From positions 128,001-192,000 of the forward strand of contig CAXXFK010000028.1 in NCBI GenBank assembly GCA_963663965.2: 64,000 bases of DNA. Direction: 5' to 3'. The position numbers were made by a program, and so were the translations under genes. Source of the DNA: Sedimentisphaerales bacterium (GTDB lineage Bacteria > Planctomycetota > Phycisphaerae > Sedimentisphaerales > SM23-30). This document shows, one piece after another, positions 44,446 through 64,000 of this stretch. The stretch's first letter is position 1, and every line of letters starts with the position of its first letter. The notes under the pieces are model-generated. The model searched no databases. It was not told where the DNA came from and saw only the letters and a program-made list of their open reading frames with translations.

Positions 44446-44487
44446 ATTGGTTCTCTGAACAAAATTTCAGAGCGAAAAAGTAAATAT

Positions 44488-44560
44488 TCCCTGATAGCTC
44501 AATTGGTAGAGCGAGCGGCTGTTAACCGCTAGGTTCCAGGTTCGAGCCCTGGTCGGGGAG
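44488..44560 (+). tRNA. tRNA-Asn (GTT), CCA not encoded
   Basis: Acceptor TCCCTGA/TCGGGGA plus G; D-arm GCTC..GAGC; anticodon arm AGCGG-CTGTTAA-CCGCT; T-loop GGTTCGAGCC. Confidence 0.97.
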
Positions 44561-44567
44561 TTTTTAT

Positions 44568-44605
44568 AAGGCCTTGTAAAAAAGTGTTTTACGAGGCCTT
44601 TTTTT
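44568..44605 (+). terminator. Terminator hairpin after tRNA-Asn
   Basis: AAGGCCTTGTAAAA...TTTTACGAGGCCTT plus a T-run. Confidence 0.8.
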
Positions 44606-44761
44606 GTATCTTTATTACTAATGGATCTGCTAGAAACAGCTGCAAACCGCTGTTAAACGCTCTATTCTGCTGCAAAATCTGCTGCAAGTTTAATCTTCAC
44701 TTTTTACCCATAGACAGGTTTTAGAACAATTAAAGTTTTCTGATAGACTTTGTTTGTATGG

Positions 44762-45041
44762 CTTAGGGTGCAAAAATTATTATCCTATAATTTACTTATA
44801 AGCAGACACTTAAAGAACGTTCGGATGAACATAATTGCGGTTTTTTTGCTGATTTGATAGACTTTTGGGACTATGAAACAGCGGATATGGATCACCCTTG
44901 CGACGTATATTGCCTACTGCATCAATAAAGAACTCTATCAGGCGATTGAGTATCTCAAAACTCAGGTGGAAGTCTTGATTGAACAACAAGAGCAACAGAA
45001 CAAACGCATTCTGTTGACCAATCCTCAACGGACAAGAATGG
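44762..45041 (+). mobile_element. Truncated 5' end of an integrase-core (IS481-like) element
   Basis: MKQRIWITLATYIAYCINKELYQAIEYL.. is paralogous to the N-terminus of 45252-46331, and the upstream non-coding DNA also aligns; cut off by the next element. Confidence 0.8.
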
Positions 45042-45042
45042 C

Positions 45043-46442
45043 CGTACCGTACATTTATTCATACATAGTTAAATCTTTGCTCATTAACATGTTAATACTC
45101 AGAAGTTGGGCCGAAAAAAACTTAACTATACCGAACTTGTTTTAAATGATTTGCCCATAGTAATTCAAATCGATTCATTTACTGTAAAGATTGGTTTGCT
45201 CCGAAGACACTACCTGTGTCTTATTCCAATGTTGAATCCACCCTGCTGCTCTTATGCAGCCAACCTGTGATAAGACTTCAACAGCCCACCCAAACGCTCA
45301 ATGCAAACAATCTCAGAGGTCTTATCAGTCTCATGTTTGGGCGCAATGATTCGACCTAACGATTGATGAATTCTTTCGTGATGATAATATTTTTGGAATT
45401 CGCTAAGAACATAATCAAGCTGTTTAACCGATGACAGTATCAGGTAATTCAAACACTCATATTTGACTGTTTTCACGAATCTTTCCGCGATGGCATTCAA
45501 GTCTGGGCTTTTTGCTGGAAGCTGGATCGGTTCGATGCCAGAGCTTCTCAGCATTTCATGAAAACCTTCTGATCGATACAATGGATCACGATCATGGATG
45601 AGATAGCGTTTCCCTTTTAGAAAACCATCCTCGCAGTCAGTAAGGATTCGTGCAACCTGTTTCATATACTGACCATCAGGCTGAAGTTGAATAGGAGCGA
45701 AGAATACTCTTCTGCTGGAAAATTCAATGGCAAAGAAGACCGTGCAACGAATCAGTTTACGCCCGACCAGAAGCTCAATGGTGAAAAAGTCGCATGCGGC
45801 CATGACCTCCCAATGGCTTTTTAAGAATTCATGCCAGGTTGATCTAACGATCAGATCAGGTTCCGGATCATAGCCGTTTTCAATGAGAATATTTTTGACC
45901 GATGATTTGCTAATCTCAAAACCAAGATACTCCATTTGATCTTTGATTTTCTCATAACCCCATCGAGGATTTTCCTTCTTGAATCTGATGACCAGATTGA
46001 CTATTTCAGTTGTTATCGGTGGTCTGCCTACTTTGCCCCGTTTGGAAGAACCATCGTACTTTTCAGCGATGAGTTTGTTAAACCACCGAATCACCGTGTC
46101 TGCTGTAAACAACTCGGTGCATTGCTCAAGCACTTTCCGGCTGAGCCGTTTCGCTTTAGCAGCAATTCGCATTCGTTGAGTATTCGTCAAAATAATTCGC
46201 TTGTTCTGCTTTTCCTGGAGCTCAATCAGAACTCGAACCTGTTCTCGAAGATAGTCTATTGCTTGGTAAAGCTCCTTGTCTATACAATACGCTACGCAGG
46301 TAATCATTGTGAGCCAAAGATTGTTTTTCATCGTAGCCAGATGCTAACAAATCGATAGTAATTCTGCAATAACGTTCATACGAACGCATTTTATGTCCAT
46401 GTTTTAAAAGAGGTTATGGAAAGTAAATTTATGTACCCCACG
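45043..46442 (-). mobile_element. Integrase-core (rve, IS481-like) insertion sequence
   Basis: Ends CGTACCGTACAT / CGTGGGGTACAT (inverted) enclose the transposase; no target duplication seen. Confidence 0.75.
45252..46331 (-). CDS. DDE transposase, integrase core domain
   Basis: ENPRWGY HTH; ACDFFT, LIHDRD, NAIAERFVKTVKYECL, HHERIHQSL, LGGLLKSY. Confidence 0.92.
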   Translation of the reverse strand: MKNNLWLTMITCVAYCIDKELYQAIDYLREQVRVLIELQEKQNKRIILTNTQRMRIAAKAKRLSRKVLEQCTELFTADTVIRWFNKLIAEKYDGSSKRGKVGRPPITTEIVNLVIRFKKENPRWGYEKIKDQMEYLGFEISKSSVKNILIENGYDPEPDLIVRSTWHEFLKSHWEVMAACDFFTIELLVGRKLIRCTVFFAIEFSSRRVFFAPIQLQPDGQYMKQVARILTDCEDGFLKGKRYLIHDRDPLYRSEGFHEMLRSSGIEPIQLPAKSPDLNAIAERFVKTVKYECLNYLILSSVKQLDYVLSEFQKYYHHERIHQSLGRIIAPKHETDKTSEIVCIERLGGLLKSYHRLAA

Positions 46443-46646
46443 GGTAAAATCTCTGGCATAGGTGTGTTCCCTTTTTTAAGGAAAAATGATTCGCAAAACA
46501 TTTTATAACACACCTATTTTACGGTTTTGACCCAAAATAGCACGCTATAACTCCGACTCTTTTACATAATCTTTTGAAATCTATAGGGTTAAAGCTACGG
46601 ACAGGCTCTAGGTAACTTTAACAGACCAATTAGCCTTTCTTCAACA

Positions 46647-46727
46647 TGGTCGATTTTAAACTGCCCCCTCGTGGTCGATTTTAACCGCCCCTTGACACCC
46701 CGCCGCACTTTTGCTCCGGCGTTTACA
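46647..46727. mobile_element. Orphan IS21-like terminal sequences
   Basis: Two TGGTCGATTTTAA..GCCCC repeats ending in TTGACA (46697), then a second end-like ..CCGGCGTTTACA (46727); no istAB genes. Confidence 0.55.
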
Positions 46728-46874
46728 ACCTGACCCAGTCCGAGAAAGAAAAGGGCAGACATAGAACTGTAGAAGCCTCTTGCCTAAGGTCATGCTGATA
46801 GCAAAATATATGGATGGTATCAAGCAATTACCGTATGATCAAATTGCCACCCACAATTTTTAAAAATAGCTCGT

Positions 46875-47057
46875 TTATGCCCCTGAACAGTCTTTGGAAA
46901 CATCCTTTTGATCATTAGATGTCTGATTTTTGTACACATTCACTACTGTGTCAACATGTTCTGCTTCAGTGCTACACTTAGGATAACCACAAACGCAGGA
47001 ATCGCATTGAAGTGAATTTTCCAGATTTTCATGTGATTTTATCTTTTTAATAATCAT
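46875..47057 (-). CDS. Cys-rich small peptide, candidate RiPP precursor
   Basis: 60 aa; GAGGT RBS; Lys-rich leader then CDSCVCGYPKC; divergent from a radical SAM cluster. Confidence 0.7.
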   Translation of the reverse strand: MIIKKIKSHENLENSLQCDSCVCGYPKCSTEAEHVDTVVNVYKNQTSNDQKDVSKDCSGA

Positions 47058-47589
47058 ATCTTACCTCTGTGATATTAAGTGTTTATATTTGAGTCTGCCC
47101 AGACAGCAAATTCATATAATTCAACGGTATAGTCTATAAAGGGTATTTCAATTAATAAAAATCAACTTGATAAGTCCAAAACATCTAGGTGATATAAGTT
47201 TATTTTAAATTGTTTTGATGGTATGAATTTTTAAGCGCCTTAACTTATTATCTACTAATAACACATATACCCAAAAGAAAATCAAAAAATACACAAAAAA
47301 ATCAAATAATTATTATGAAGATACTCTAGCAATTCTTATAATTAGATTGTTATCTGATCAATGTCAAGTAATATTTTTACAAAAGTGTCAACATTCTACG
47401 TTCACGTTGAGTAATAATAAACTTGTTATAAAACCATAGAATTGGTAAAAAATTGTATATTTATAGCCGTGAAAAACAATAGATAATAGTTATAAGAAAA
47501 TTAGACTATCGATAGTCTATATTACAACTTAAATAGATGTAGGGCATATCCCAAGAGTGCAAATATAGCGATTAAGCAATTTACAGAAG

Positions 47590-48744
47590 ATGAAAAAGAA
47601 AATTTTTATGAAAACGGTAGGCTGTAACAGAAGGGAGGCAGATAGTCAACGATTAAAGAACTACTTCATTGCAAACAATTGCCAACTTGTTACAAGGGAA
47701 GAGAGGGCAGATGTCATTGTGCTTATAGCATGCGCCTTTACAAAAGCTTTTGAAGATCAGTGTTTCAACCTGATTGAAGAATATCAGAGGCTCAATGCTG
47801 AATTAATTGTGGCAGGTTGTCTTCCAGCAATTGCGCGGGAAAGACTCAATAGAATTTTTTTAGGAAAATCGTTATCGACAAAGAAACTATACTTAATCGA
47901 CAGGCTCTTTCCAGAATTTTCAATAGAATTCCAGAGTATACCAGATCTTGCCGTCCCGTTTACTTTTAGGCACAAGGCATCAATTAGGCTACCCATCTGG
48001 TTAGCTAGTAGGCTGAATAAAAAATGGCACGCCAATAGTATAGTAAATTTCAGAATCAGCAGTGGTTGCCTCGGAAATTGCGCGTATTGTGGCATTCGAG
48101 AGGCCATCGGACCACTCCGGAGCAAACCTCTAAAAAAATGCATGCAAGAACTCGATTTTTTGTTGAAACTAGGATATCGAAGAATTTACCTCATTGGTGA
48201 TGACGTTGGGGCTTATGGGCAAGATATAAATACAGACTTGAATGATTTCTTTCAAGAATGCCGAAGGAATGCCATTAGATATGGTATAACTTGGGAGGGC
48301 ATAAGCGATATGCATCCGCAATGGTACATTAAATATGAAGGCATACTTATGGAAGAAATTCGGAGCGGTCGCATAAAAAGCATGGTATGTGCTATCCAAT
48401 CGGGGAGCGCCCGAATACTAGAAAAAATGAACAGACCTGGTAATATAAAAGAAATCGAGAGAATTTTATCTCGATTCAGAAACGAAAATAAAAAATTAAA
48501 GATAAGTGGGCATGTTATTATTGGATTTCCGGGAGAAACAAAGGACGATTTTATGGAAACGTTTTATTTCTTGAAGCGCATTCGCTTTGACCATGTGGCG
48601 ATAATTCCGTATTCTGACAGAGATGGTAGCTTATGTCGAAATTGGGAAGAAAAAATACTTGCGTCAACTATTCAAAAAAGGATCCAATTTGTTGAAAAGA
48701 ACTTGGCTCAGGAGAACCTCAAGTTCGAAATCTTGCCAAACTAA
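47590..48744 (+). CDS. Methylthiotransferase-like (MiaB/RimO family) radical SAM enzyme lacking a TRAM domain
   Basis: UPF0004 domain with three Cys (VGC, IAC, AGC); GCLGNCAYC; IQSGS; IIGFPGET; ends right after the rSAM domain. Confidence 0.85.
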   Translation: MKKKIFMKTVGCNRREADSQRLKNYFIANNCQLVTREERADVIVLIACAFTKAFEDQCFNLIEEYQRLNAELIVAGCLPAIARERLNRIFLGKSLSTKKLYLIDRLFPEFSIEFQSIPDLAVPFTFRHKASIRLPIWLASRLNKKWHANSIVNFRISSGCLGNCAYCGIREAIGPLRSKPLKKCMQELDFLLKLGYRRIYLIGDDVGAYGQDINTDLNDFFQECRRNAIRYGITWEGISDMHPQWYIKYEGILMEEIRSGRIKSMVCAIQSGSARILEKMNRPGNIKEIERILSRFRNENKKLKISGHVIIGFPGETKDDFMETFYFLKRIRFDHVAIIPYSDRDGSLCRNWEEKILASTIQKRIQFVEKNLAQENLKFEILPN

Positions 48745-49492
48745 GCCAAGAGATAGCAAGGGTTTCGTCGATAATTAGGCAGCCCTATTATGTCGCATTC
48801 TGACTTTTTACGATACCTTGACCGCCTTTAAGAATATAGACGAGTATAATATACCATTCTTATTTTATTATAAAGATGGCAAATGACAGGTTGTATTCAA
48901 CCTGTTCTAATGAAAATATATACAATTAAATTAGATTCGCTAACGGTTTTTAATAACCCACAAATGAATAATAATCTCTTTAGTATGAAATCAAAAAACA
49001 GCAGGTTATATAAGCGCTCAATCTTGACATTTTGTTTGACATATTAATGCAAAGCAGTGTATGTCTATTAACAGTTGCATTAAATTTTCGTTTTTCTGAG
49101 CAGGATTAGTTCTTGAGAAGGATTTTTGCTTTAGCTGAGTTTTATTTGGTAGCGATAACAAATCCGAATTAGGAAATCACGAAATCTGAAAAGAAGAATA
49201 TGATTGATAAAAAAGAAGCTTATTCTGTAGGCGAATAAAAAGCCCTAAAATAATAAGAAGTCATCCTAAAATCCCTGATTTTAGTGTTATTCGCACTGAA
49301 AACGCAGTTAGGTATAGGTATTGGGATAGATTTTAGAAAGATTTAAGAAACACAAAAGGTATGTTTTTTCGGAAAGCAGTGGCCTTATGCTTTACAAGGT
49401 ATATTGACATATGTTTAAAATGAATAATATAGCATAAATAATGCAATTCTTCTAAATATAAACCACGGAGTCATAACTGGAGATAAAATACT

Positions 49493-50800
49493 ATGCTTTC
49501 GAAATATGCTAAACAGATTGAAATATGTAAAGGTGTATTTGCTATATTTAATTCCCTGATTTGTGAACCAGTTTATGTTAATGAAGAGGAACTTCAATTG
49601 GTTTTGAGTGGAGATACATCATCATTTCAAAAATCAGAAATTCAAAAACTATATGAATTAGGAATATATGCAAAAGACTCTGAGATTGATAAATTAGCTC
49701 TTAATACTTTACAAAAAATTTACCAGAAGACAACACAGAATATTGCTTTGATGTATATAATGCCAACGACTGCATGTAATCTTGCATGTAAATATTGTTT
49801 CATTGGGGCGCTTGACGATCAATCAAATTTTGTCAATATTAAATGGGAAACTATTAAAATCGCAGTTAATAAATTCTTCGACCACTTGAAAGATCATAAA
49901 ATTGAAGAGGGGAAAATCATGTTTTATGGTGGTGAGCCAACTATTGCTTGGGATTTGATTATTCAAACAGCTCAATATATACAGGATTGTGGTTTAAATA
50001 TAAAGATTGCCATGGTTACAAATGGTACACTGTTGACTGAAAAAGAAGTGCTCCAGATAAAAAAATATGGTATAAATTTCGGTATTTCCGTTGATGGTCC
50101 AAAAGATGTTACCGATTCTAACCGCGTTTTTAAAGGAAGCGCTAAAAGTGTTTACGATAAAGTGATGGAAACAGTTAGTCTTTTAATTAAATATGACTTA
50201 CCTGTATCATTGTCTGTTACCATATCACACCATGTATTAAAATATCAGGAAGAAATAATCCAATGGTTGATCACCACAAATGCGTCTGTTTGGTTCAATC
50301 TATTGCACTTTACTGAGGAAATTGACAGTTGGGAAAATTATTACAATCAAGCATCAATATTTTTGCTAATTGCACATGAAGCTTTCGCTAAACATGGAAA
50401 AAATGAAGGGCGAATAGATCGTAAGATTGATTCTTTTCACAATAGAAAGTTTAAGTTTGCAGACTGTGCAGCAATTGGCGGTAATCAGATCACGATTTGT
50501 CCAAATGGCGATATGTGTATTTGTCACGGATATTGGAATTCAAACCACTACAAATGTGGCAATATACATACATCCGATTTTAAAGATGTTTTTAAAACCA
50601 ACGAATATATACATTGGCTGGAAAATGCAACAATTAATAAAGAAGATTGTTTAAATTGTGAAGCAATATTTATTTGTGGTGGCGGCTGCGCAATGCAGGC
50701 TGAAGCCTTATTTGGTGAACGTCAGAAGATTGACCGAAGTTTTTGTATCCACACAAAATCTGCATTGAAATGGCTATTACTTAATCATTATAAAAGCTGA
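49493..50800 (+). CDS. Radical SAM/SPASM peptide maturase with RRE-like N-terminus
   Basis: CNLACKYC; FYGGEP; ISVDGP; SPASM C..ICH..CLNC...ICGGGC...FC; ~70-aa N-terminal segment ending KLYELGI. Confidence 0.9.
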   Translation: MLSKYAKQIEICKGVFAIFNSLICEPVYVNEEELQLVLSGDTSSFQKSEIQKLYELGIYAKDSEIDKLALNTLQKIYQKTTQNIALMYIMPTTACNLACKYCFIGALDDQSNFVNIKWETIKIAVNKFFDHLKDHKIEEGKIMFYGGEPTIAWDLIIQTAQYIQDCGLNIKIAMVTNGTLLTEKEVLQIKKYGINFGISVDGPKDVTDSNRVFKGSAKSVYDKVMETVSLLIKYDLPVSLSVTISHHVLKYQEEIIQWLITTNASVWFNLLHFTEEIDSWENYYNQASIFLLIAHEAFAKHGKNEGRIDRKIDSFHNRKFKFADCAAIGGNQITICPNGDMCICHGYWNSNHYKCGNIHTSDFKDVFKTNEYIHWLENATINKEDCLNCEAIFICGGGCAMQAEALFGERQKIDRSFCIHTKSALKWLLLNHYKS

Positions 50801-50835
50801 CAACATTTTATTGGTCACTATTACGATAAATTAAT

Positions 50836-52095
50836 ATGAAGATTAAAACTATAATCATAGTTGCCATTAACTGTCCGGGGTATTACTCTCTTGCAGTCCA
50901 TTATTTAAAGCTATATTCAGACTCCGATCGCTATCTAAGAAAAAGATGCAAAATTCTTACAGCAGAATACAATACTAATACGGATAATAATTTCATTATA
51001 AATGAACTTACCAAGCTAAAACCTGATTTGGTCGCTTTTTCATGTAATATTTGGAATATTCAAAAAATTATTCCCATCTCAAAGATAATGAAAGAGTCGT
51101 TTCATAACTTAAAAATCATCTTTGGTGGACAGGAAGTTTCAAATTCATCCATCGATTACCTTGCACTTCATTCATTTATCGACATTGTAGTTGAGGGAGA
51201 AGGCGAAAAAACGTTCAAAGAAATAGTTTATTCAATGATCGAGGATAATTATGATTCTTTAAATACAATTAGTGGGACACACTACAGACATCAGGATGAA
51301 CTATTTTATAATCCGAAATCAAATAATTTAGTTGATCTTAACCTATTGCCTTCTCCATATCTAGAGGGAAGGATAATTAATCCTGATAATAGACACTTGG
51401 GAGTAATGATTGAACATGTTAGAGGGTGCCCTAATCAATGTGCATTCTGTTTTGAGTCAAAACGATATCAAAAACCAAGAGCATTCCCATTAGAACGAGT
51501 AAGCGAGGAACTGTCGTGGGCTAGATCAAGGGGATATAAAAATTATCATATCATGGATCCCACACTTTGCTTGAACAATACTAAAAAGATGTGGGAACTG
51601 AATAATATAATAAAAGAAGTATTTTTTAACTATGATTATATGATGTCTGTTGAAATTTACGCCGAAGGTATAACAGAGAAAAATTACCATTATCTTGACT
51701 GTTATAGTCATTTTGACATTGGGCTACAGACAATAACATCACAAACCAATAATAATATAAATCGTAGGTTAAATCTAGACAAGTTTATCGAAGGATTTAA
51801 TCTGGTACGAAAACTAAAAAAACAAACAAATATCTTTCTTATTTATGGATTTCCGGGCGATAATCATGATAGATTTTTAAAAGGAGTTTATTTTGTTGAA
51901 TCTTTAAAACCTTCAATTATTACCCTGAATAAATTATTAGTATTAAATGGAACACCCTTGCGGCATCATGCTGCTCAGTTTGATTTGCTATTTGAAACCA
52001 AACCTCCATATGAAGTTATTTCAAATTGTACTTATTCTGCTAGTGATATCAAAAAATCAGAATCCTTTGCTTATAAGTATTTAAAAGCAAGGTAA
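50836..52095 (+). CDS. Cobalamin-binding radical SAM enzyme (class B methyltransferase-like)
   Basis: PDLVAFSCNIWN..IIFGGQEVS..GEGE B12 domain; RGCPNQCAFC; IGLQT; LIYGFPGD. Confidence 0.9.
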   Translation: MKIKTIIIVAINCPGYYSLAVHYLKLYSDSDRYLRKRCKILTAEYNTNTDNNFIINELTKLKPDLVAFSCNIWNIQKIIPISKIMKESFHNLKIIFGGQEVSNSSIDYLALHSFIDIVVEGEGEKTFKEIVYSMIEDNYDSLNTISGTHYRHQDELFYNPKSNNLVDLNLLPSPYLEGRIINPDNRHLGVMIEHVRGCPNQCAFCFESKRYQKPRAFPLERVSEELSWARSRGYKNYHIMDPTLCLNNTKKMWELNNIIKEVFFNYDYMMSVEIYAEGITEKNYHYLDCYSHFDIGLQTITSQTNNNINRRLNLDKFIEGFNLVRKLKKQTNIFLIYGFPGDNHDRFLKGVYFVESLKPSIITLNKLLVLNGTPLRHHAAQFDLLFETKPPYEVISNCTYSASDIKKSESFAYKYLKAR

Positions 52096-52118
52096 AACTT
52101 TAATTATATGGTAACTAT

Positions 52119-53213
52119 ATGTTTTCCACATTAGATATTGAGGCGTTTGATATAAACTCTTTCCCATTTACACGAGGGCCAATATTCCTAGAAATACACC
52201 CGACTAATATATGCAATTCAGTTTGTGTATTCTGCAACCAACGTCATTTTAGAACTCAACACAACCAAATTGATTACGCATTTTTAATATCACTTTTAGA
52301 TGAACTCACAGACAAAGGTCTAAGGGTTCTAAGAATATCAGGAGGTGGAGAACCTACTATTTATCCACATATTTTAGATTTATTGGATTATATTCGACAA
52401 AAAAAAATTATTTTGTCTATGTTTAATACTAATGGTATTCTACTAAACAAAGAGTTAATAGTCGAGCTAACCAGAGTACCAACAAAAACCTTGTATCTTT
52501 CATTACAAGCACCTAATTCTCAAAGTTGGAATAAAATCACGGGCCAACCTTCGTATATTTATGATAGAATCATAAATAGTATACAGATGAATGTTGAATT
52601 TTTCAAAGAAACAAGCTTATTGGTTAGCTATGTATTACATGAGGATACTTACGAGGATCTCGAAAGCGGTATATTGCTTTGCAAAAAAAACAATTGGGAT
52701 GTAAATATCGTAGATTTAAATAATTATTCTTATAGCTCAGCCTTTCTTAGTAATATAGATAAGGTAGTAGAAAAATTAAAGACACTGAAGCAACTATACA
52801 ATAAAATATTTTACGGATTTGAAAATATACCAGAATTATTACCTATCTCAGATTGTGGTCCCCAGCAAAGCTGTATTCGCCAGACAAACACATTATCTGA
52901 TCAACAGATTTGTCTTGCACCTTGGTTTTCATCGTTAATAAGGCCTAATGGCGAAGTTTTCACCTGCTGTGCTTTGGGTGGAAAGAATAATTGTATTGGA
53001 AATATATACAATACTGATTTTACATATGTATGGAATTCTCAAAAATCTAAAGCCATAAAATTAGAAGCTATATCTCTTTTCTTCAATCAATCCAAAGATT
53101 ACTATCACGAATACATGTATTTATCAAATCAATGTTTGAGTTGTTGCCCAGTCCAGATAGGTTGTTTTTCGAATCCAGAAATAGTATCGCTTATAAGAGA
53201 GAAGATTAGATGA
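52119..53213 (+). CDS. Radical SAM enzyme with SPASM/twitch domain
   Basis: TNICNSVCVFC; SGGGEP; CLAPW..IRPNGEVFTCC..IGNI..W..CLSCC. Confidence 0.9.
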   Translation: MFSTLDIEAFDINSFPFTRGPIFLEIHPTNICNSVCVFCNQRHFRTQHNQIDYAFLISLLDELTDKGLRVLRISGGGEPTIYPHILDLLDYIRQKKIILSMFNTNGILLNKELIVELTRVPTKTLYLSLQAPNSQSWNKITGQPSYIYDRIINSIQMNVEFFKETSLLVSYVLHEDTYEDLESGILLCKKNNWDVNIVDLNNYSYSSAFLSNIDKVVEKLKTLKQLYNKIFYGFENIPELLPISDCGPQQSCIRQTNTLSDQQICLAPWFSSLIRPNGEVFTCCALGGKNNCIGNIYNTDFTYVWNSQKSKAIKLEAISLFFNQSKDYYHEYMYLSNQCLSCCPVQIGCFSNPEIVSLIREKIR

Positions 53214-53458
53214 CGAAAATCTTTTTGTACATTTACATTTATGATTATTCTTCCCTCGAAAGCTTCTGAATTAGACCAAGATCACAATACAAATTCTGAT
53301 AAAAAATATGCTTTATCCACTGCCTGAAATATCGAACAGTGACAACTATAAATAAGCCTATGAATGAACTTCTGATCAGAACAGAATTTCACTAGCTTTA
53401 TAGCCACCCCTGATCTCTTTTAACTTTTAGAAAATTTTCCCAAGAGCCTATCTTATCC

Positions 53459-53963
53459 CGTACCGTACATTTATTCATACATAGTTAAATCTTTGCTCAT
53501 TAACCAGTTAATACTTAGAAGTTGGGCCGAAAAAAAACTTAACTATACCGAACTTGTTTTAAACGATTGGCCCATAGTAATTCAAATAGATTCATTTACT
53601 GTAAAGATTGGTTTGCTCCGAAGACACGACACGTGTCTTATTCAAATGTGGAATCCACCCTGCTATTCTTATGCAGCCAACCGGTGATAAGACTTCAACA
53701 ACCCACCCAAACGCTCAATGCAAACAATCTCAGAGGTCTCATCAGTCTCATGCTTGGGCGCAATGATTCGACCTAACGATTGATGAATTCTTTCGTGATG
53801 ATATTATTTTTGGAATTCGCTAAGAACATAATCAAGCGGTTTAACCGATGACAGTATCAGGTAATTCAAACACTCATATTTGACTGTTTTCACGAATCTC
53901 TCCGCGATGGAATTCAAGTCTGGACTTTTTGCAGGAAGCTTTATTGGTTCTATTCCTGAACTT
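53459..53963 (-). mobile_element. Partial second copy of the IS481-like element (3' end of transposase plus terminus)
   Basis: Near-identical direct repeat of 45043-~45543; a TAT>TAA stop near 53802 breaks the transposase remnant. Confidence 0.9.
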
Positions 53964-54080
53964 TTGCTTTTTTAATAATCTACTAATTTCAGTTTTTATT
54001 CAGATCCTGCCCAGATCAGGCATCAGCCCCCTCTTTCCTTTGAAATGTTCTCTATCACCCTTTTTAAATTATCCTGAAAA

Positions 54081-54288
54081 TTAACGGGTATTGAGCCAAT
54101 GATTGACCAATATAAGCAAGTCATTGCTGTCAACGATCAAATCGCTCGTTAAGTCTGCCCGTTCGCACAAGCCGCAGTCGGACATCAGCCAGTGATTGGC
54201 AAATTGGGCGAAATCAATCAGATCAACCTGGCCATCGAGCTGCAAATCGCCGGGCAGAGGCAGCATGGTAAGATAGGCTTCAGCAAAA
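54081..54288 (-). pseudogene. 3' remnant of a secreted protein ending in a planctomycete dockerin-like module
   Basis: PGDLQLDGQVDLIDFAQFANHWL..C..ADLTSD..VDSNDL...HWL; 5' part lost at the IS256 end. Confidence 0.75.
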
Positions 54289-54309
54289 GGTAGCGTCAAG
54301 AATCTTTCG

Positions 54310-56245
54310 GTAGCGCCAGGTAACTGGCAAGGAGTAGCGGATGCAAGAGCCGTACAATGAAGGTTTAGCAAACCACATTGGCCCCGAGTCATGTGGGCAT
54401 ACCGGTAACGGTATGCTTGAAGCGTTGACAGGGGAAGATGCGGGCTGGGTATTGAGCCGCGTAAGTTTGTACATTATAGAACGGAGTGCCGACGCTGTCG
54501 AAAATGTCGGAAGGCAACACCGGATGTCTTATTATCGCGAGAGACATTCCGGACTCCGCGCGGTCGAAGACCCCAGGCACGCATGGACACTTCTTGCACA
54601 GGAACTGGGAGATCCCTTGTTTGGCCTCAGGACACATTATCCTGTGGTCCGCACAGAAAATCCAATTGGAGTACTGCTGTGATGAACGAACAGGGGAAGT
54701 CGGACAGGCCCATAGTACCTAAGAAGTTCTCGAACAAAGAGGCTGGTTGCCATGCCTTGGCGGAGAGGATAGAGGGAAGGGGCCTGACCAAGGGCAATTC
54801 GTCTCTACTGCACAAGTGCCGGACACCGGGCCGGGAAAGCTTGCCAAACGCATTAGAACGAATACGACAGGCAGCCACCCGGGATAAACAGCTAAAGTTT
54901 ACTTCCCTGTGGCATCATGTCTATCATGTCGACCACCTGAGAGAAGAATTCTATCGCATTAAGCGGCAGGCTTCCCCGGGTGTGGACGACCAGACATGGC
55001 AAGAGTATGAGGCCGGGTTAGAGAACAATCTCAATAGCCTGGCAGAACGACTGAGAAAGGGGGCATATCGGGCAAAACCGGTAAGGCGGGTATTCATCCC
55101 CAAACCGGATGGACGCCAGCGTCCCATTGGTATTACTACCATTGAGGATAAAATCGTCCAGCGTAGCACGACTACGGTATTGAACGCTATTTATGAGGCT
55201 GACTTCAAAGGCTTCTCCTATGGCTTTCGTCCCGGTCGCAGTGCTCACAACGCCTTAGATGCTCTCTATGTCGGCATACTCAAGCGTAAGATAAACTGGG
55301 TACTCGACGCTGACATCAGCGGCTTCTTTGATGCCATCGATCACGATTGGCTGATTAGATTCGTCGAGCACCGAATCGGAGACCCGCGAGTAGTACGGCA
55401 TATCAAGAAATGGTTGAATGCTGGAGTCGTGGAAGAAGACAAACTTCTGCAGATCAAGGAAGGCACCCCGCAAGGTGGGAGCATATCGCCATTGCTGGCG
55501 AATATCTACCTTCATTATGTATTTGATCTGTGGGCTGACCAATGGCGAAAGCGTAACGCCAAAGGGCATATGATTATCGTTCGATATGCTGACGATATCG
55601 TTGTCGGATTCCAATATCAATCGGATGCCAATAGATTTCATACGGACCTGCAGAATCGATTTGGCAAGTTCAAGTTGAAGCTTCATCCGGCCAAAACCCG
55701 GCTCATTCAGTTCGGCCGCTATGCGACAGAACGAAGGACTACTCAAGGTAAAGGCAAGCCTGAGACATTCGACTTTCTTGGCTTTACGCACATCTGTTCC
55801 AAGTCAAGTAAAGGTCGGTTTATGTTGCTCCGGTTGCCGATGAGAAAGCGGGTGCAGGCCAAGCTAAAGGAAATCAAGGAACAGCTCAAATACCGGCGCT
55901 ATACCTCGATTCCGGAGATGGGCCAGTGGCTTCACTCTGTTATCAGCGGCTGGTACCGATACTACGCCGTTCCTAATACATCTCGCTATCTTGGCACCTT
56001 TCGCCGTAGGGTCGCCTGGCTTTGGTTCAGAGCGTTAAGAAGACGCAGTCAACGAAGCCGCATGACCTGGAGGCGAATGTACCAACTGATAGCAAGATGG
56101 CTTCCGCAGCCTAAAATTCTGCATCCGTACCCCCAGGCACGCTTACAAGCTGCTCGTTATGACCCGAGGTAGGAGCCGTATGCGGTAGTTCCGCTCGTAC
56201 GGATCTGTGCGGGGGGCTGGGAGTAATCCCAGTCCCTACCGCGAC
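54310..56245 (+). mobile_element. Group II intron
   Basis: Domain V GAGCCGTATGCGGTAGTTCCGCTCGTACGGATC (from ~56173); domain VI ending ..CCCTACCGCGAC; RT ORF inside; boundaries defined by restoring the IS256 TIR. Confidence 0.9.
54682..56172 (+). CDS. ltrA: Group II intron reverse transcriptase/maturase, no endonuclease domain
   Basis: IPKPDGRQRPIGI, SYGFRPGR, DADISGFFD, GTPQGGSISPLLANIYL, RYADD, FDFLGF, GWYRYY; no HNH. Likely start MNEQGKSD. Confidence 0.95.
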   Translation: MNEQGKSDRPIVPKKFSNKEAGCHALAERIEGRGLTKGNSSLLHKCRTPGRESLPNALERIRQAATRDKQLKFTSLWHHVYHVDHLREEFYRIKRQASPGVDDQTWQEYEAGLENNLNSLAERLRKGAYRAKPVRRVFIPKPDGRQRPIGITTIEDKIVQRSTTTVLNAIYEADFKGFSYGFRPGRSAHNALDALYVGILKRKINWVLDADISGFFDAIDHDWLIRFVEHRIGDPRVVRHIKKWLNAGVVEEDKLLQIKEGTPQGGSISPLLANIYLHYVFDLWADQWRKRNAKGHMIIVRYADDIVVGFQYQSDANRFHTDLQNRFGKFKLKLHPAKTRLIQFGRYATERRTTQGKGKPETFDFLGFTHICSKSSKGRFMLLRLPMRKRVQAKLKEIKEQLKYRRYTSIPEMGQWLHSVISGWYRYYAVPNTSRYLGTFRRRVAWLWFRALRRRSQRSRMTWRRMYQLIARWLPQPKILHPYPQARLQAARYDPR

Positions 56246-56349
56246 CACATTTTTTATTAGTCTTTCATCTGGTAGAGTCTTTCAATGGAGGAGGGAGGGA
56301 CAACTCCCTGCCCTGCCTCCCCGAGGGGAGGCAAAAATTTATCGGACGA

Positions 56350-57591
56350 TCATGCCATGACCACCTCCTCTTTTTCAGCTTTTTTCTCCTTCTCCAACTC
56401 ATACAAATGATCCATATTCAAATAACGCCTCGTACCCCATTGGGTGCCGGCAATATGTCTCAGGCGGGCCGTGGCCAGCATCAGGGCCGAGTGACCATCC
56501 GGGAAATTGCCCACCACGCGCGTACGACGACGAATCTCACGCATGATCCGCTCCAGTGGATTATTGGTTCGCAACTGCCGCCAGTGCTTGTCGGGATATT
56601 GATAGTAAGTGAGTGTTTCGAGATAGCTTTCCTGGACCAATTCAGCGGCCTTGCCCAGTTTCATCTCCCGCAATTTGACAATCACTTGCTCGGCCTTCTG
56701 GATCGCCGCCTGGCGGTCTTCCTGGGCATGGATGGCCTTGAGCATGGCCGCGACCTCTCGCACCTTCTTGCGCGGCACATGACTGAACACGTTGCGATAC
56801 CAGTGGACCGTGCAGCGCTGCCAGTCGGCCTCCGGAAAAACCTCGGCCAGCGCGTCCACCAGACCCAGGCATTTGTCGGAAACAAACAGGCGAACACCCT
56901 GCAGGCCGCGGCGCTTTAAATCGCGTAAGAAACCGCCCCAACCGGCTTTATCCTCTTTGGCGCCCTCGCAGGAACCCAGCACTTCGCGATAGCCCTCCTG
57001 ATCGACGGCAATGGCCACCAGAATCGAAACATTCTTGACTTCGCCGCCCCAGCAACGTTTCAAAACGATGCCGTCCAGATAGACATAGGGATACGACCCT
57101 TCCAGTTTGCGGTTGCGCCATTGGTCGATCTGTTGATAGACTTTCTGATTCAGATTGCTGATGGTGCCCGCACTGACACGGGCGCCCCACAGGCTTTCGG
57201 CGATGTCTTCGATACGCCGGACCGAAACGCCGGCCAGATACATCTCGATCAGGGCCTCTTCTACCGAAGACTCCCGGCGTTTATAGCGCTCGATGATGGC
57301 GGTTTCAAAGGTCGTTTTTCGCAGCTTGGGCATCTTCAAATTCACTTCGCCGGTCGTCGTATGAAACTTACGCGGATAATAGCCCGCCCGGGTATCGGTG
57401 CGGGCCTGGGTATGTTCATAACGCTGGGCGTTGCAGAGCTGGTCCGCCTCGGCGTCCAGCAGGGCATTGAGCGTGTCTTCCACACTCTGGCGCACCATCT
57501 GGCCCAACTGATCCTTCATCTGGGATTGGTCGATTTTTAAAATTTGGTTCAAGTTCCTAACGTCACTGGTCGATTCTTCTGTTTGACTCAT
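56350..57591 (-). CDS. IS256-family (Mutator) transposase
   Basis: EMYLAGVSVRR, YVYLDG, FVSDKCLGL, WQRCTVH, TNNPLERIMREIRRRT. Confidence 0.96.
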   Translation of the reverse strand: MSQTEESTSDVRNLNQILKIDQSQMKDQLGQMVRQSVEDTLNALLDAEADQLCNAQRYEHTQARTDTRAGYYPRKFHTTTGEVNLKMPKLRKTTFETAIIERYKRRESSVEEALIEMYLAGVSVRRIEDIAESLWGARVSAGTISNLNQKVYQQIDQWRNRKLEGSYPYVYLDGIVLKRCWGGEVKNVSILVAIAVDQEGYREVLGSCEGAKEDKAGWGGFLRDLKRRGLQGVRLFVSDKCLGLVDALAEVFPEADWQRCTVHWYRNVFSHVPRKKVREVAAMLKAIHAQEDRQAAIQKAEQVIVKLREMKLGKAAELVQESYLETLTYYQYPDKHWRQLRTNNPLERIMREIRRRTRVVGNFPDGHSALMLATARLRHIAGTQWGTRRYLNMDHLYELEKEKKAEKEEVVMA

Positions 57592-57697
57592 AGTCAGTCC
57601 TTTCATTTGGTGGTAGGTTTCGGTTTCAAAAACTTCATCGACCAGATGAAGGACTGTTTTTACGGTGTCCTATAATATGTGCGAAAAATATTTTACC

Positions 57698-59359
57698 TTA
57701 TCCGAATATCTGCTGCATGTCATGTCCATTCTCGGTGTTTGTCGGATTCCAGGCGTTGAGTGTGCGGGCATTGTCTCTAAGCCGGTAAATATCCTCACTG
57801 TTTAGCCCCTTGGGATCTGCTAACAGGATATCGATTTGAGAAATAAGTGAGGGGATCTGGAGGGTCAGTTTTTGGTATTGCGACCAGGCTTGAAGCTTCT
57901 CCTGCATAAAGGTGATCTGGTTGGGGCTCAGTCCAAAGGGATACTTCACTGTTATAGCTGTGGTCTTTTTAGTATTAAGATCTTCTGCCTTCACATTGAT
58001 AATCATGCTGGCATCGATATCGAATGTTACCTCGATCTGAGGAGTGCCTCTTGGGGCGGGGGGAATGTCATTGAGAGTCAGGGTGCCCAAATACAGGTTA
58101 TCTTTAACAAATTCGCTTTCTCCCTGGTAAACATTCACATCGACCTTGGTTTGATCCATCGTTGCAGTAGTGAAGGTTTCGGAATTAGAAGTTGGTACGG
58201 TTGTATTCTTTTGGATAATACGATTAAAAACCCCGCCTTGAGTTTCCACGCCGTAAGTTGCAGGGACGATATCCAAGATAAGGGAATGCTCTTGTCCCAA
58301 TAGAATTTCAGCCTGAATAATGGCCCCCTCAGCCACACAGGTTATAATGTCAACACCGGTAAAGGGTTTAACCGATAGTTGTTCAGCGATATTCCGACGG
58401 AGCATTGGCATGTTACTGGCACCACCGATAAGTAATAATGCGTTCAGCTCTTCATACTGATGCTTGGTGCTTTTGAGTGCCTTTTTCAGTATAGTCACGG
58501 CGCGATTCATGAGGGATTCAGCATTTTTTTCGAATGCATCCCTTTCGATGACGACATCCAGAGCCTGAATTTCGTTGTTAATGGTCACGAAACCGGGGAG
58601 ATAAATCCTGGACGAAGGGGCGGTGCTCAGTTCAATTTTTGCCCGTTCAGCAGCCTCTCTGATAATTAGTTTTTGAGTGTGATCCAGGTTGGGTAATGAA
58701 CCACAGGTCAACTTGAGCTGATCGTGAATCATATCGACGATAACCTGATCGAAGTCATCGCCTCCTAGGGATGAGTCTCCTTCGATACATATAACGTCGT
58801 AACAATCTTCATCGACACTGACAACCGAGACATCCAGAGTGCCTGCTCCCATGTCACATACAAGTATGTTCCCGCAGATATCTTTATCGTGTCCGTATGC
58901 CAGAGCGGCGGCAGTAGCTTCATTCATCAGCCGATGAACATTTAAGCCGGCAATCTTAGCAGCTTCAATCGTTGCGCGTCGCTGGCTTTCACTGAAGTGG
59001 GAAGGAATAGCAATAACCACATCGTGGGCCTCCTGTCCCAGATACGCCTCCGCACGGAGTTTTAATTCCATAAGGATGTATGCCAGAATTTCTTGCGGAT
59101 AAGCCTTCCAGCCATCCCAGTCGGTCTCACTCATACGGCCAACCGACCGTTTGGCGGAACTAACCGTGATATGCGTTCCACGGTAACGGTCCGGGTGGCG
59201 CACGGCATTGTTGCCGGCAAAAATACCTCCATTTGGATTTACCAGAATCTGTGAGGGGATACTGTATACACCGTTTTTATCGGGTATAATCACAGGTTTG
59301 CCGTTTTCATAGAAGCCTACGACGGACTTTGATGTTCCCAAGTCGATACCTAAAATCAT
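57698..59359 (-). CDS. Hsp70-family protein (DnaK paralogue), 3' end probably truncated by IS256
   Basis: GIDLGTS, NEATAAALAYG, DMGAGTLDVS, LGGDDFD, GGASNMP, VYQGE, PPAPRGTPQIEVTFDID; stop codon lies inside the IS256 TIR. Confidence 0.9.
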   Translation of the reverse strand: MILGIDLGTSKSVVGFYENGKPVIIPDKNGVYSIPSQILVNPNGGIFAGNNAVRHPDRYRGTHITVSSAKRSVGRMSETDWDGWKAYPQEILAYILMELKLRAEAYLGQEAHDVVIAIPSHFSESQRRATIEAAKIAGLNVHRLMNEATAAALAYGHDKDICGNILVCDMGAGTLDVSVVSVDEDCYDVICIEGDSSLGGDDFDQVIVDMIHDQLKLTCGSLPNLDHTQKLIIREAAERAKIELSTAPSSRIYLPGFVTINNEIQALDVVIERDAFEKNAESLMNRAVTILKKALKSTKHQYEELNALLLIGGASNMPMLRRNIAEQLSVKPFTGVDIITCVAEGAIIQAEILLGQEHSLILDIVPATYGVETQGGVFNRIIQKNTTVPTSNSETFTTATMDQTKVDVNVYQGESEFVKDNLYLGTLTLNDIPPAPRGTPQIEVTFDIDASMIINVKAEDLNTKKTTAITVKYPFGLSPNQITFMQEKLQAWSQYQKLTLQIPSLISQIDILLADPKGLNSEDIYRLRDNARTLNAWNPTNTENGHDMQQIFG

Positions 59360-59454
59360 GTCGAATCTCCTAACAATGTCATCGTGGCAGGGGGAATTGC
59401 GGTTATCTTATAGGAATAATTCAATTTTGTTAAGTCTTTTTTGTTTTTTGACGT

Positions 59455-59913
59455 CTATGGTCTGCAATGGCCCCATTGTGAGCCAAAATGTGATTCCAGG
59501 CTCTTCCCAAAATTGTCGGGCCATAGATAATCCTTGACCTTGATGCCAATTGACGCCAGCAATTTCTGTACGAAATCCGTACAGTCCATATACGCAATTG
59601 TCCAGTCGGGGCCGTTGAGTCTCCAATCTTCAACAGCTTTCCTGATTTTACGGTATTCTAAACCGGAAATGGGAATTACAATAGAGCGCGTATAAAGATG
59701 CAGATTGTTCTGGAGTAACTCATTACGGATACCGTCTGGATAGAGTCCCCAGGCTTCAAGGCAGCATGACTTTTGGATGCCCGTGCATCGGTTGTTGCCA
59801 ATGGCGATCATGGCGTGGCCGAGTGTTCGGTTTCCAATGTTGGCGGGTCTGGTCATAACCATTAACTGGTAAGGAGCGTTTGCCGATGAAGGATTGGACG
59901 GATTGTTCATCAC
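59455..59913 (-). CDS. Small permuted papain-like (His...Cys) cysteine hydrolase, putative effector
   Basis: GHAMIAI..WGLYP..MDCTDFV..L; AGGAG RBS. Confidence 0.55.
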   Translation of the reverse strand: MMNNPSNPSSANAPYQLMVMTRPANIGNRTLGHAMIAIGNNRCTGIQKSCCLEAWGLYPDGIRNELLQNNLHLYTRSIVIPISGLEYRKIRKAVEDWRLNGPDWTIAYMDCTDFVQKLLASIGIKVKDYLWPDNFGKSLESHFGSQWGHCRP

Positions 59914-59929
59914 GGAATCTCCTGAATAT

Positions 59930-60994
59930 TTAATTTAATGTATAGTAGGCAAGCAGGACATGCTTTGACTCCTGTTGTCTGCACCTTAAAGTTACATTTT
60001 TATCTGAAAGCAGGTCTTTTTGCACATAACTATCGCCAGGCGATAAAACTGCAATCTGGTCACGACCGTTCTGATGGATTTCCACTGTAATTTTGACATT
60101 ATCGGGAATATCACTGGTCAGTCGCATAAACAAGGCATGCTTCCGGCCATTGTTGAAAGCAATTGGTATTTGTGCCTGTGGGGAAGCACAAATACCCGGC
60201 CAGATCCATTGCCTGCGTTTCCACTGGCCAAGGGTATCAGCTTGGGATGGGATATACAGTGGCAGTCCTTTCCAGACATCCAGGCATCTGATCAAGTGTT
60301 TAACGCAGTGTCCGGGATTGTCTTGTTGCCAAGCGGTTTTGAAATATTCCTGTTCGCAGATTTTGGTTTGTGAGGATCCGGATAGGCTTTCATATACAAA
60401 TCGTAGAAATGTCGACCAGTTCATATTGGGATCTCGCAAACATATCCTGGGAATATCAACCATTTCAGTAAGGTGATTCATGAGCTGGTCAAAAATTTGT
60501 CTGGAACGATGGCAAGCATGAATGGAATACAAGGGTGGCAGAAAATAGGGATCGATAATCAGGCGGCCATTATCGGACAGAATTGACACCAGCGGCATAT
60601 CGTATTCATTGTTATTTGAATCGGCAATGAGTTGTATATCCACAGCAGGCAAATCGATACTAATCCGTTCGGTTGGATTTGTGGCTGGTTTCGCTCTGGC
60701 GCGGATACCGATTATGCCGGAGGTATCCACTTGCAGATGCAGGCTGTCAGTGTTGATCCAATGACCGTTAACCAGCGCGGTCAAACCTGAGACAGTAAGG
60801 CAATGGCCCTCCATCTCGATACGGTCCATGGCTAATACTGTGTTGTGACTATTAAGCAGCCGGGCGAGCAGGTAGCAGGGATTGACCGAACCGGTCTGGC
60901 GCAAAAGAAGCTTGAGACTGTCGGCATCCAGGATGCCTCCTTGTTCGACTTGGCCACTTAAATACAGGCTGTGTTGGTCGTGGTTCAAGTTCAT
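59930..60994 (-). CDS. Hypothetical protein, divergent TssK-like baseplate subunit
   Basis: MPLVSIL..GRLIIDPYFLPPLYSI..QLMNHL recalls the TssK D-x-x-F-x-P-P segment; ATGA overlap with the upstream gene. Confidence 0.45.
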   Translation of the reverse strand: MNLNHDQHSLYLSGQVEQGGILDADSLKLLLRQTGSVNPCYLLARLLNSHNTVLAMDRIEMEGHCLTVSGLTALVNGHWINTDSLHLQVDTSGIIGIRARAKPATNPTERISIDLPAVDIQLIADSNNNEYDMPLVSILSDNGRLIIDPYFLPPLYSIHACHRSRQIFDQLMNHLTEMVDIPRICLRDPNMNWSTFLRFVYESLSGSSQTKICEQEYFKTAWQQDNPGHCVKHLIRCLDVWKGLPLYIPSQADTLGQWKRRQWIWPGICASPQAQIPIAFNNGRKHALFMRLTSDIPDNVKITVEIHQNGRDQIAVLSPGDSYVQKDLLSDKNVTLRCRQQESKHVLLAYYTLN

Positions 60995-63230: not shown

Positions 63231-63280
63231 GTCAGTACGGGCCTCCAGATCAGGAACTCCGGTTATCTCCAAATCTTAAG

Positions 63281-63679
63281 CTATTTTTTTACAACAGTGT
63301 ATGTTGGGCGTGTCTTTGTTTGACCGCGGACCCAGAAATAGCCGTGCTCGTCCTCAGGTAAATCCCCACTGAACAGGACATCCTGAAATTCAACTTCACG
63401 GATACGGATAAGCTGTTCCTCACCATCAGCCGTCTGGGTCACATGGAATGTTTCAAACTTGACGGTGAGGCCATCATTTCCCACCCAATCTTCCAGGCCT
63501 GAACCGACCGGGGATCCCAGCAGGAAAACACAGGGCATCAACACTCCCTTGGAGTGAAGCACTCCTCCAGCGTCTTCTTCAGTGTCGTCTTCATTCCAGT
63601 TAAACTTGAACACGCAATAATTGACCTCTTCTGAACCAATATGAATGACGGTTTTTTTGAATTGTTTTTTATTAGCCAT
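63281..63679 (-). CDS. Hcp/TssD- or tail-tube-like protein
   Basis: 132 aa, beta-rich; EVNYCVFKF..LEDW..IREVEFQDVLF recalls TssD/tube proteins; sits between sheath-like and VgrG-like genes. Confidence 0.45.
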   Translation of the reverse strand: MANKKQFKKTVIHIGSEEVNYCVFKFNWNEDDTEEDAGGVLHSKGVLMPCVFLLGSPVGSGLEDWVGNDGLTVKFETFHVTQTADGEEQLIRIREVEFQDVLFSGDLPEDEHGYFWVRGQTKTRPTYTVVKK

Positions 63680-63695
63680 TGTTCATGGTCTCCTG

Positions 63696-64000
63696 TTAAT
63701 TGTTTGAAAGGTTTACAATACGAGAAATTGAGCGTATCATTTTAATGTGTTCGACAGCTTCAACGATGCCGATATCAAGTTTCAGTCTCATCTCACGAGT
63801 GGTTTTCGTCAGCAGCGGCTGGTAGGTTACTCTGAAATGCGGGCACTCGGCATAGTCTCCCAGGCCTTCCTTGACCAGGCGTTTGATGATGGCCTCTCGT
63901 TCAATTTCGGACACGCATCCAATCACTGAACGAAGGCTATTCAGGAAAAATGTACCAACGATATCGCTGAGCCGGGCGCTCCACAATTGCTCCAGCCCTT
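63696..64000 (-). CDS. C-terminal part of a putative contractile sheath (TssC/tail sheath-like) protein, runs off the window
   Basis: Frame open to 64000; helix-helix-FRV..LKLDIGI..VEHIKM pattern typical of sheath C-termini. Confidence 0.4.
   Translation of the reverse strand, partial: GLEQLWSARLSDIVGTFFLNSLRSVIGCVSEIEREAIIKRLVKEGLGDYAECPHFRVTYQPLLTKTTREMRLKLDIGIVEAVEHIKMIRSISRIVNLSNN

Follow-up and report, generated by a model that had tools for sequence, protein, structure and literature searches.

A candidate RiPP precursor-maturase pair beside three further radical SAM enzymes in an insertion sequence-bounded cassette of a Sedimentisphaerales bacterium

Introduction

Can a single short peptide be the substrate of four radical S-adenosylmethionine (SAM) enzymes of different classes? 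This question is raised by a cassette of ca. 6.8 kb in the genome of a Sedimentisphaerales bacterium of the phylum Planctomycetota (assembly GCA_963663965.2), located in a stretch of 64,000 nucleotides of contig CAXXFK010000028.1 (positions 128,001 to 192,000) that was analysed as a whole and is hereafter designated as the window. One gene of this cassette encodes a small Cys-rich peptide, P0001, and four others encode the radical SAM enzymes P0002 (methylthiotransferase-like), P0003 (SPASM-type), P0004 (B12-binding) and P0005 (twitch-type). A preliminary description, made from the DNA letters alone, regarded this assemblage as a candidate new system for a peptide that is ribosomally synthesized and modified post-translationally (RiPP), with all four enzymes acting on one product. 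Part of this proposal stands: P0001 and P0003 are very probably a genuine RiPP precursor-maturase pair, because peptide and maturase co-occur in 12 of 16 sister loci and because of the maturase tree and a model of the complex. The claim of newness is weakened, the core of the cassette being the sister of a curated system, FibroRumin.

The five open reading frames (ORFs) and the short gaps separating P0003 from P0004 (35 bp) and P0004 from P0005 (23 bp) were confirmed. The same description overlooked that P0002 is set 748 bp apart (48745..49492, with no credible gene) from the three-gene P0003-P0004-P0005 operon and differs from these genes in third-position GC content. All five frames are intact and have all their cluster cysteines, the CxxxCxxC motif being kept in P0002, P0003, P0004 and P0005. 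The GC content at third codon positions (GC3) is 0.26 in each of P0003, P0004 and P0005, 0.28 in the peptide gene and 0.38 in P0002. A search of the two intergenic gaps of the cassette revealed no further peptide gene.

The maturase P0003 and its clade

P0003 (49493..50800, plus strand) is a 435-residue protein with Pfam radical SAM and SPASM domains. Its AlphaFold model (predicted local distance difference test, pLDDT, 92) opens with three strands followed by three helices, the order that defines a RiPP recognition element (RRE) in PMC12710340, and the RRE-like N-terminus proposed earlier fits this definition. The best fold matches are the RiPP maturases TigE and CteB, with template modelling (TM) scores of 0.68-0.75. 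Seven SPASM cysteines (325, 344, 386, 389, 395, 399 and 418) are invariant in 40 sequences and, by analogy with CteB-type enzymes, would leave one iron site open to a thiol of the substrate.

Of 4,317 candidates in database searches, 213 are relatives of P0003 at an E-value of 1e-40 or better. P0003 itself aside, those among the 120 matches listed are 38-53% identical to it, and the closest, P0006-P0010, 44-53%. The best curated family over the whole length is TIGR04136, the FibroRumin maturase, for which P0003 scores 216.7 bits, below the cut-off of 400. Seven members of its clade score 190-252 bits and three true FibroRumin members 663-795, with the maturase of locus L091 intermediate at 368. 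In a quick tree of 43 rows, P0003 and P0006 fall in a 16-row subclade (SH-aLRT, the Shimodaira-Hasegawa-like approximate likelihood ratio test, 94) inside a 29-row clade (SH-aLRT 89), separate from the FibroRumin and CPR-type rows. P0001 and P0003 appear to belong to an unnamed sister clade of FibroRumin and, by the curated sequence tests, not to FibroRumin itself.

Among 401 genomes from a single order of gut Bacilli, 12 were found to contain this clade. With the queries used, P0003 was found neither in 40 close relatives of the host nor in 300 genomes of its phylum; in scans of genome contigs, the single P0003 sequence gave nothing and an alignment-based query gave matches. The absence of the clade from the own-phylum genomes sampled, together with the low GC content, points to a horizontal arrival of the cassette.

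Sister loci and the peptide P0001

Sixteen distinct loci of the P0003 clade were read, and 12 of them contain a Cys-rich peptide of 50-62 residues. These peptides begin with a Lys-rich stretch, continue with a core rich in CxC and, in most cases, have a C-terminal [IVL]-Y-[KR] segment as in P0001, from which the clade is referred to here as the Y-K-follower clade. Among the four loci without a peptide, L249 and L259 extend less than 400 bp upstream of the cassette's first gene, L265 carries a truncated maturase, and none was found in L083. The peptide lies downstream of the maturase in 9 of the 12 loci. The layout of the present cassette, with a divergent peptide gene followed by one accessory gene and then the maturase, is that of L003, L004 and L260, the first two of which also share the 16-row subclade of P0003.

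Accessory genes in the sister loci encode an RlmA-like methyltransferase (11 of 16), a second methyltransferase (6 of 16) and a GNAT protein (3 of 16). The RlmA-like protein, composed of a Zn_ribbon_RlmA and a methyltransferase domain, fills the slot between peptide and maturase in L003, L004 and L260. Loci with RlmA-like genes (L003, L004, L005, L249 and L259-L265) occur in two subclades, and the RlmA-like gene is often near genes that read as recombinase-like. ORFs that read as transposase-like split the peptide from the maturase in L264 (7378-9133) and truncate the maturase in L265 (437-2549); Y-K-follower cassettes are often hit by insertion sequence (IS) elements. Two FibroRumin-related loci were also observed, one with two CxxxCxxC proteins and a short peptide (L009, 6406-10297), the other on a viral-collection contig with five CxxxCxxC proteins and a short peptide ending in a Trp-rich segment (L168, 4128-10174).

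P0001 (46875..47057, minus strand) is a 60-residue precursor with five cysteines, identified from its ORF, GC3, family alignment, tests with hidden Markov models (HMMs) and the complex model, as well as from a GAGG preceding its ATG. It can be divided into a Lys-rich leader (1-17), a core with C18, C21, C23 and C28, a follower at about V38-K43 and a 17-residue tail with C57. No direct homologue was found in 5.8 billion proteins, the one candidate being P0001 itself. A search of 1.84 billion proteins with a profile of the peptide family returned 29 matches, namely P0001, whose recovery is circular, an 867-residue protein that was discarded, and 27 short peptides. The leader, core and follower of P0001 all align to HMMs that were built in its absence. 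Trained on 11 of the 12 sister peptides, such an HMM gave 48 bits to the held-out peptide of L258 and 9.2 bits to P0001, which ranked 6th among 122,171 short genome segments (only 96 of which fall inside the cassette), with 8 of 2,000 shuffles as high. With 32-33 seeds, after five near-duplicates were dropped, P0001 scored 10.7-11.4 bits and ranked 3rd, with 2-3 of 3,000 shuffles as high, the extra seeds having come from the search that included P0001. The FibroRumin peptide model TIGR04135 (cut-off 45 bits) did not match P0001 at an E-value of 10, nor did a genome scan place a match at the locus; the peptides of L007, used as a positive control, scored 62-69 bits. A Cys...[ILV]Y[KR] motif occurs in 3 of 18,285 ORFs and in 13 of 33 family members, but was defined after P0001 was known and is not used as independent support.

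Model of the peptide-maturase complex

A model of P0003 with residues 1-48 of P0001 scored 0.82, against 0.00 for the best control. Of 157 solved pairs, 116 attained the mark set for such models, as did 2 of 215 mismatched pairs; with the alignments used, these figures are only approximate. Runs shared at least 59% of their contacts, and the partner pLDDT was at least 60. The best contacts place the conserved follower (residues 37-43) on residues 20-76 of P0003, and the interface also includes leader residues 1-9, with Ile2 at P0003 residue 28.

The three other radical SAM enzymes

P0004 (50836..52095, plus strand; 419 residues) combines Pfam B12-binding and radical SAM domains. Its closest solved relatives are the C-methyltransferases CysS and TokK, of which it lacks the C-terminal third, with the B12-binding domain and the CxxxCxxC motif present. 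P0004 scored 139.9 bits against the KedN5-family model NF033712, not reaching the cut-off of 700. Relatives were detected in 7 of 200 genomes of the phylum, at 28-30% identity and in longer open frames (577-779 residues). The idea that P0004 is necessarily truncated was dropped, since clusters of B12 radical SAM enzymes of 420-436 residues exist.

P0005 (52119..53213, plus strand; 364 residues) is a twitch-type enzyme with a Pfam radical SAM domain and a short SPASM match. No relative was found in the 200 phylum genomes, nor among plasmids at an E-value of 1e-12; 15 plasmid records match at 20-28% identity, and of the three that were read one lies in a nucleotide-sugar cluster, one is isolated and one is beside a MATE gene. 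Atlas searches with P0004 and P0005 returned generic radical SAM clusters only.

P0002 (47590..48744, plus strand; 384 residues) has Pfam UPF0004 and radical SAM domains. The cysteines of its auxiliary cluster (C12, C48 and C77) and of its radical SAM cluster (C160, C164 and C167) are conserved in at least 90% of 30 alignment rows. In RimO/MiaB/MtaB-type enzymes, a TRAM domain binds RNA or uS12. For P0002, no TRAM domain was matched by Pfam, the profile match stops at residue 353 of the 438 of RimO, and the last elements of the structural model are a helix and a single short strand. The closest structures are MtaB, RimO and MiaB, at 19-25% sequence identity; with TIGR00089, P0002 scores 216 bits for a cut-off of 251, and it falls below every cut-off. 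Other full-length methylthiotransferase paralogues occur in the same genome. The family of P0002 includes at least 149 environmental proteins (E-value of 1e-30 or better among 2,492 candidates), with 29-41% identity among the matches listed. TRAM-less methylthiotransferase-like genes were also observed on two contigs of a viral collection (L273, 8001-9065; L274, 7860-9062).

Eleven loci of this family were read, obtained from searches that gave hits in 1 of 150, 3 of 250, 0 of 5, 0 of 151, 3 of 151 and 1 of 121 genomes, together with the two best viral loci. The P0002-family genes had sugar genes as neighbours or stood alone, and in one case the gene was part of an apparent lasso-peptide cluster. 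The five richest loci were scanned with Pfam, covering 22 of their 67 ORFs; in L381, one neighbouring protein had no Pfam match at 1e-8, and a twitch-type label for it was dropped. The apparent lasso-peptide cluster (L378, G1077:C52, 6818-15164) holds the P0002-family enzyme and a glycosyltransferase family 2 gene. These two lie between, on one side, a PqqD-like ORF (6818-7099) and a 48-residue ORF ending in Asp-Ser that reads as a lasso precursor (7215-7361) and, on the other, an Asn-synthase-like cyclase, a Transglut_core3 peptidase and an NTP_transf_5 gene; an ABC transporter is found upstream. From its gene content, L378 is apparently a second, independent RiPP context for the TRAM-less methylthiotransferase family.

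Mobile setting of the cassette

The AT-rich setting noted earlier was confirmed (GC content of 0.328 over 46740-53457, for contig values of 0.42-0.52), as were the IS flanks and the preceding tRNA. A direct repeat of 506 bp, built of IS 3' ends, lies on both sides of the cassette with 93.9% identity between copies. The left copy (45042..45546) comprises the 3' end of an integrase gene of an IS together with the adjoining flank, and the right copy (53458..53963) is a truncated IS end. The IS transposase/integrase itself (45252..46331, minus strand; 359 residues, Pfam rve_3 and HTH_32) has copies of 70-88% identity elsewhere in the genome. Between it and the cassette (46440..46698), comparison of the genome with itself by blastn revealed two short ends of multi-copy mobile elements, one of 171 bp with 8 further copies and one of 89 bp with 3 further copies, the latter presumably resembling an IS21-type end.

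A tRNA-Asn(GTT) gene was predicted by ARAGORN 2.3 kb before the cassette (44487..44561, plus strand). Its 3' end is repeated ca. 42 kb further on (C28:214727-214823, 85%), beside a phage-type integrase; hence an integrated island of ca. 42 kb probably carries the cassette as cargo at one of its ends, with the tRNA gene as the probable integration site and the other end beyond the window. A second, shorter att-like copy was observed ca. 4.6 kb past the repeated 3' end. Other cargo of the island (window 44487-64000 plus L370/L371) includes genes for a TPR-CHAT protein, a trypsin-like protein and TOTE primase, and an AbiEii pair. On the minus strand (57698-63272), an Hsp70-like gene is followed by ORFs of 152, 354, 368 and 392 residues and more beyond the window; these had no Pfam match at 1e-4 and look like an uncharacterised operon. 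Within 54081-57606, a reverse transcriptase element (54302-56256), group II intron-like by reading, interrupts a short ORF that we take to be dockerin-like; it is joined to a Mutator-family IS, and both recur near-identically on several contigs.

A single 6,820-bp Logan contig (46668-53487, without differences) spans the five genes and is present in both runs of a single sample, which is probably the source sample; it confirms the assembly and is not an independent occurrence. No contig joint skipping the cassette was listed among the Logan contigs, which drop rare forms. No RNA data set was listed as containing it, a result that does not bear on expression. As had been noted, no peptidase or exporter is close by: among 18 nearby ORFs scanned no exporter was detected, and the only protease domains, CHAT and trypsin-like, are both more than 14 kb away. 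Promoter and terminator scans remained at chance level (35 for 34.4 expected and 2 for 3.7, respectively).

Proposed pathway and alternative explanations

The reading that we put forward has, as a whole, an even chance of being correct: P0003 would cross-link P0001, P0004 and P0005 would tailor the same product, and P0002 would probably have come later. The RRE of P0003 is predicted to grip the leader (1-9) and follower (37-43) of P0001, so that the Cys18-28 loop stays accessible to the active site. By analogy with ranthipeptide and sactipeptide synthases (PMC8326336 and PMC11002830), P0003 probably forms Cys thioether rings: a 5'-deoxyadenosyl radical would abstract a hydrogen from an acceptor residue and the Cys sulfur would join there, with a loss of 2 Da per ring. 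An action of P0004 and P0005 on the peptide is a possibility that we rate slightly below even; P0004 would methylate carbon in the manner of CysS/TokK-type enzymes, and P0005 would perform a further redox or epimerisation step. Because of its GC3 of 0.38, compared with 0.26-0.28, and its 748-bp separation, P0002 is likely a later addition in the accessory slot of an old four-gene unit, with an uncertain putative substrate; that it methylthiolates the peptide is doubtful. Leader removal and export would fall to the host, or to genes since lost at the IS boundary. The fullest version, in which a 60-residue precursor, bound through both its leader and its follower to one RRE, undergoes modification by four radical SAM classes (thioether formation, C-methylation, twitch redox or epimerisation, and methylthiolation), is improbable.

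Several observations favour a common peptide pathway. There is no sugar gene inside the cassette, P0003-P0005 are alike in spacing and GC3, sister cassettes carry variable accessory enzymes, and the lasso-peptide cluster of L378 holds a P0002-family member. A number of points weigh against it, some of which concern the pair itself. P0001 is divergent, with its four core cysteines at a different spacing and a 17-residue tail absent from most relatives, and the genome-wide E-value of its HMM match (1.2-6.7) is not significant alone. Since solved RRE-leader complexes exist, the score of the complex model may partly reflect memory of them; close cousins also pass, and no core cysteine is among the confident contacts. 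In addition, TigE, the best fold match of P0003, reportedly makes cyclopropylglycine (PMC10878394), so that the fold does not determine the chemistry of P0003 and a non-thioether reaction is possible.

Other points concern the joint action of the four enzymes on one peptide, a claim that co-occurrence does not support. Relatives of P0002 and P0004 are absent from all 16 sister loci, where P0005 matched only the SPASM maturases themselves, and none of the 11 P0002-family loci has a relative of P0003. Failure of the homologues to co-occur had been named beforehand among the grounds for abandoning the four-enzyme proposal, and such was the outcome for P0002, P0004 and P0005 in the loci sampled. 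No peptide or SPASM gene was seen in the 1.5-kb flanks of P0004 relatives, neither P0004 nor P0005 has an RRE-like N-terminal extension, and the five-gene combination is absent from every other locus examined.

Among the alternatives, these same data give most weight to a mosaic origin, which is possible although somewhat unlikely. P0001 with P0003 would then make up a RiPP unit of two genes, whereas the enzymes P0002, P0004 and P0005, gathered in the same IS-bounded DNA, would serve a sugar, a glycan or a small molecule and not act on the peptide. Besides the co-occurrence lacking in both directions, glycosyltransferase or nucleotide-sugar genes were found in 3 of the 5 Pfam-scanned P0002-family loci and adjacent B12 radical SAM genes in 2 of the 5, the neighbours including glycosyltransferase, WbqC/DegT and B12 radical SAM genes. 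The best plasmid match of P0005 (23%) sits in the nucleotide-sugar cluster, P0002 deviates in GC3 and stands off the operon, and genes upstream of the tRNA read as glycosyltransferase-like. However, sugar genes are absent from the cassette, P0004 and P0005 match P0003 in spacing and GC3, their relatives (20-30% identical) are too distant for context to be transferred, and sister cassettes regularly recruit accessory enzymes.

Alternatively, the cassette could be the remnant of a larger peptide or glycopeptide cluster, perhaps inactive or incomplete, from which the peptidase, the exporter and maybe glycosyltransferases were cut off by IS elements. The IS ends at both edges, the exporter and dedicated peptidase missing from the 18 nearby ORFs, and the UvrA-like ABC gene that follows the maturase in true FibroRumin loci would fit such a history. 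Yet none of the five frames is broken and every cluster cysteine is kept, and the Y-K-follower cassettes, read by eye, also lack a conserved peptidase or exporter partner, making this explanation distinctly improbable. The gene between peptide and maturase might also provide self-protection, by modifying the translation apparatus against a ribosome-targeting peptide. An RlmA-like protein occupies this slot in L003, L004 and L260 and is present in 11 of the 16 sister loci, and P0002 is closest to RimO, MiaB and MtaB; P0002 and its family nevertheless lack the TRAM domain, to which the RNA- or uS12-binding role is ascribed, and no link connects the peptide with the ribosome, so that we regard this idea as very improbable. 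Finally, a chance origin of the 60-residue frame, with P0003 left as an orphan after the loss of its peptide, is hardly credible: the non-significant genome-wide E-value and the lack of a direct homologue in 5.8 billion proteins would agree with it, but a ribosome-binding site, a matching GC3, a full-length alignment with the family in the expected position and the score of the complex model do not.

Comparison with known systems

The pair resembles FibroRumin (maturase TIGR04136, peptide TIGR04135) as a neighbouring clade in which a small Cys-rich peptide lies beside an RRE/SPASM enzyme. It differs in that P0003 and P0001 both fail the curated cut-offs, P0003 with 216.7 of 400 bits and P0001 with no match to TIGR04135, in that P0001 has a Y-K/R follower where FibroRumin-type peptides have Trp, and in that the cassette has three extra radical SAM enzymes and no UvrA-like ABC partner. 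A full-text literature search for the name FibroRumin found no paper.

With the ranthipeptide and sactipeptide synthases CteB (PDB 5WGG), PapB (NF047865) and SkfB, P0003 shares an RRE, radical SAM and SPASM fold (TM score of 0.68-0.70 to CteB), the seven invariant SPASM cysteines and a putative Cys-rich substrate. In contrast, its sequence is only 16-20% identical to these enzymes, and it scores 130.7 of 340 bits with the PapB model. The substrate motif of PapB is C-x3-D, which P0001 lacks. By analogy, we infer that the cassette works like a ranthipeptide or sactipeptide cluster.

B12 radical SAM enzymes that C-methylate ribosomal peptides beside other tailoring enzymes include ApyD and TmoD (PMC11002830) and, reportedly, PoyC of the polytheonamide pathway (PMC8326336). 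The presence of such an enzyme is common to the apy, tmo and polytheonamide pathways and to the present cassette, although the partners there are a P450, MNIO, PEARLs or an epimerase, whereas here they are a putative Cys-thioether SPASM enzyme, a twitch enzyme and a methylthiotransferase-like enzyme; P0004 reaches 55.9 of 750 bits with the ApyD model. A comparison with ApyO as a SPASM enzyme was discarded, as ApyO is a P450 (PMC11002830). P0002 is like RimO, MiaB and MtaB in its UPF0004 and radical SAM domains with both Cys triads, and these are its best sequence and fold matches, but they possess the TRAM domain and P0002 belongs to a separate environmental family. For a methylthiotransferase in RiPP biosynthesis, no paper was found by title or start of abstract, subscription journals being outside the search.

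Significance

The locus is a self-contained test kit of one short peptide and four small enzymes. Two things limit its significance: only a single occurrence of the four-enzyme combination was observed, and related cassettes of peptide and maturase are common. Six uncharacterised precursor groups were reported in PMC10288494, whose supplementary precursor set, for 3,421 clusters, could include the Y-K-follower clade. Read modestly, the locus would reveal what chemistry a so far uncharacterised clade of FibroRumin-like maturases carries out, together with a testable prediction of two-ended recognition, of leader and follower, by one RRE. If the four-enzyme reading were true, it would provide a peptide substrate for a widespread and large orphan family of TRAM-less methylthiotransferases, and a methylthiotransferase in RiPP biosynthesis would represent a new RiPP modification.

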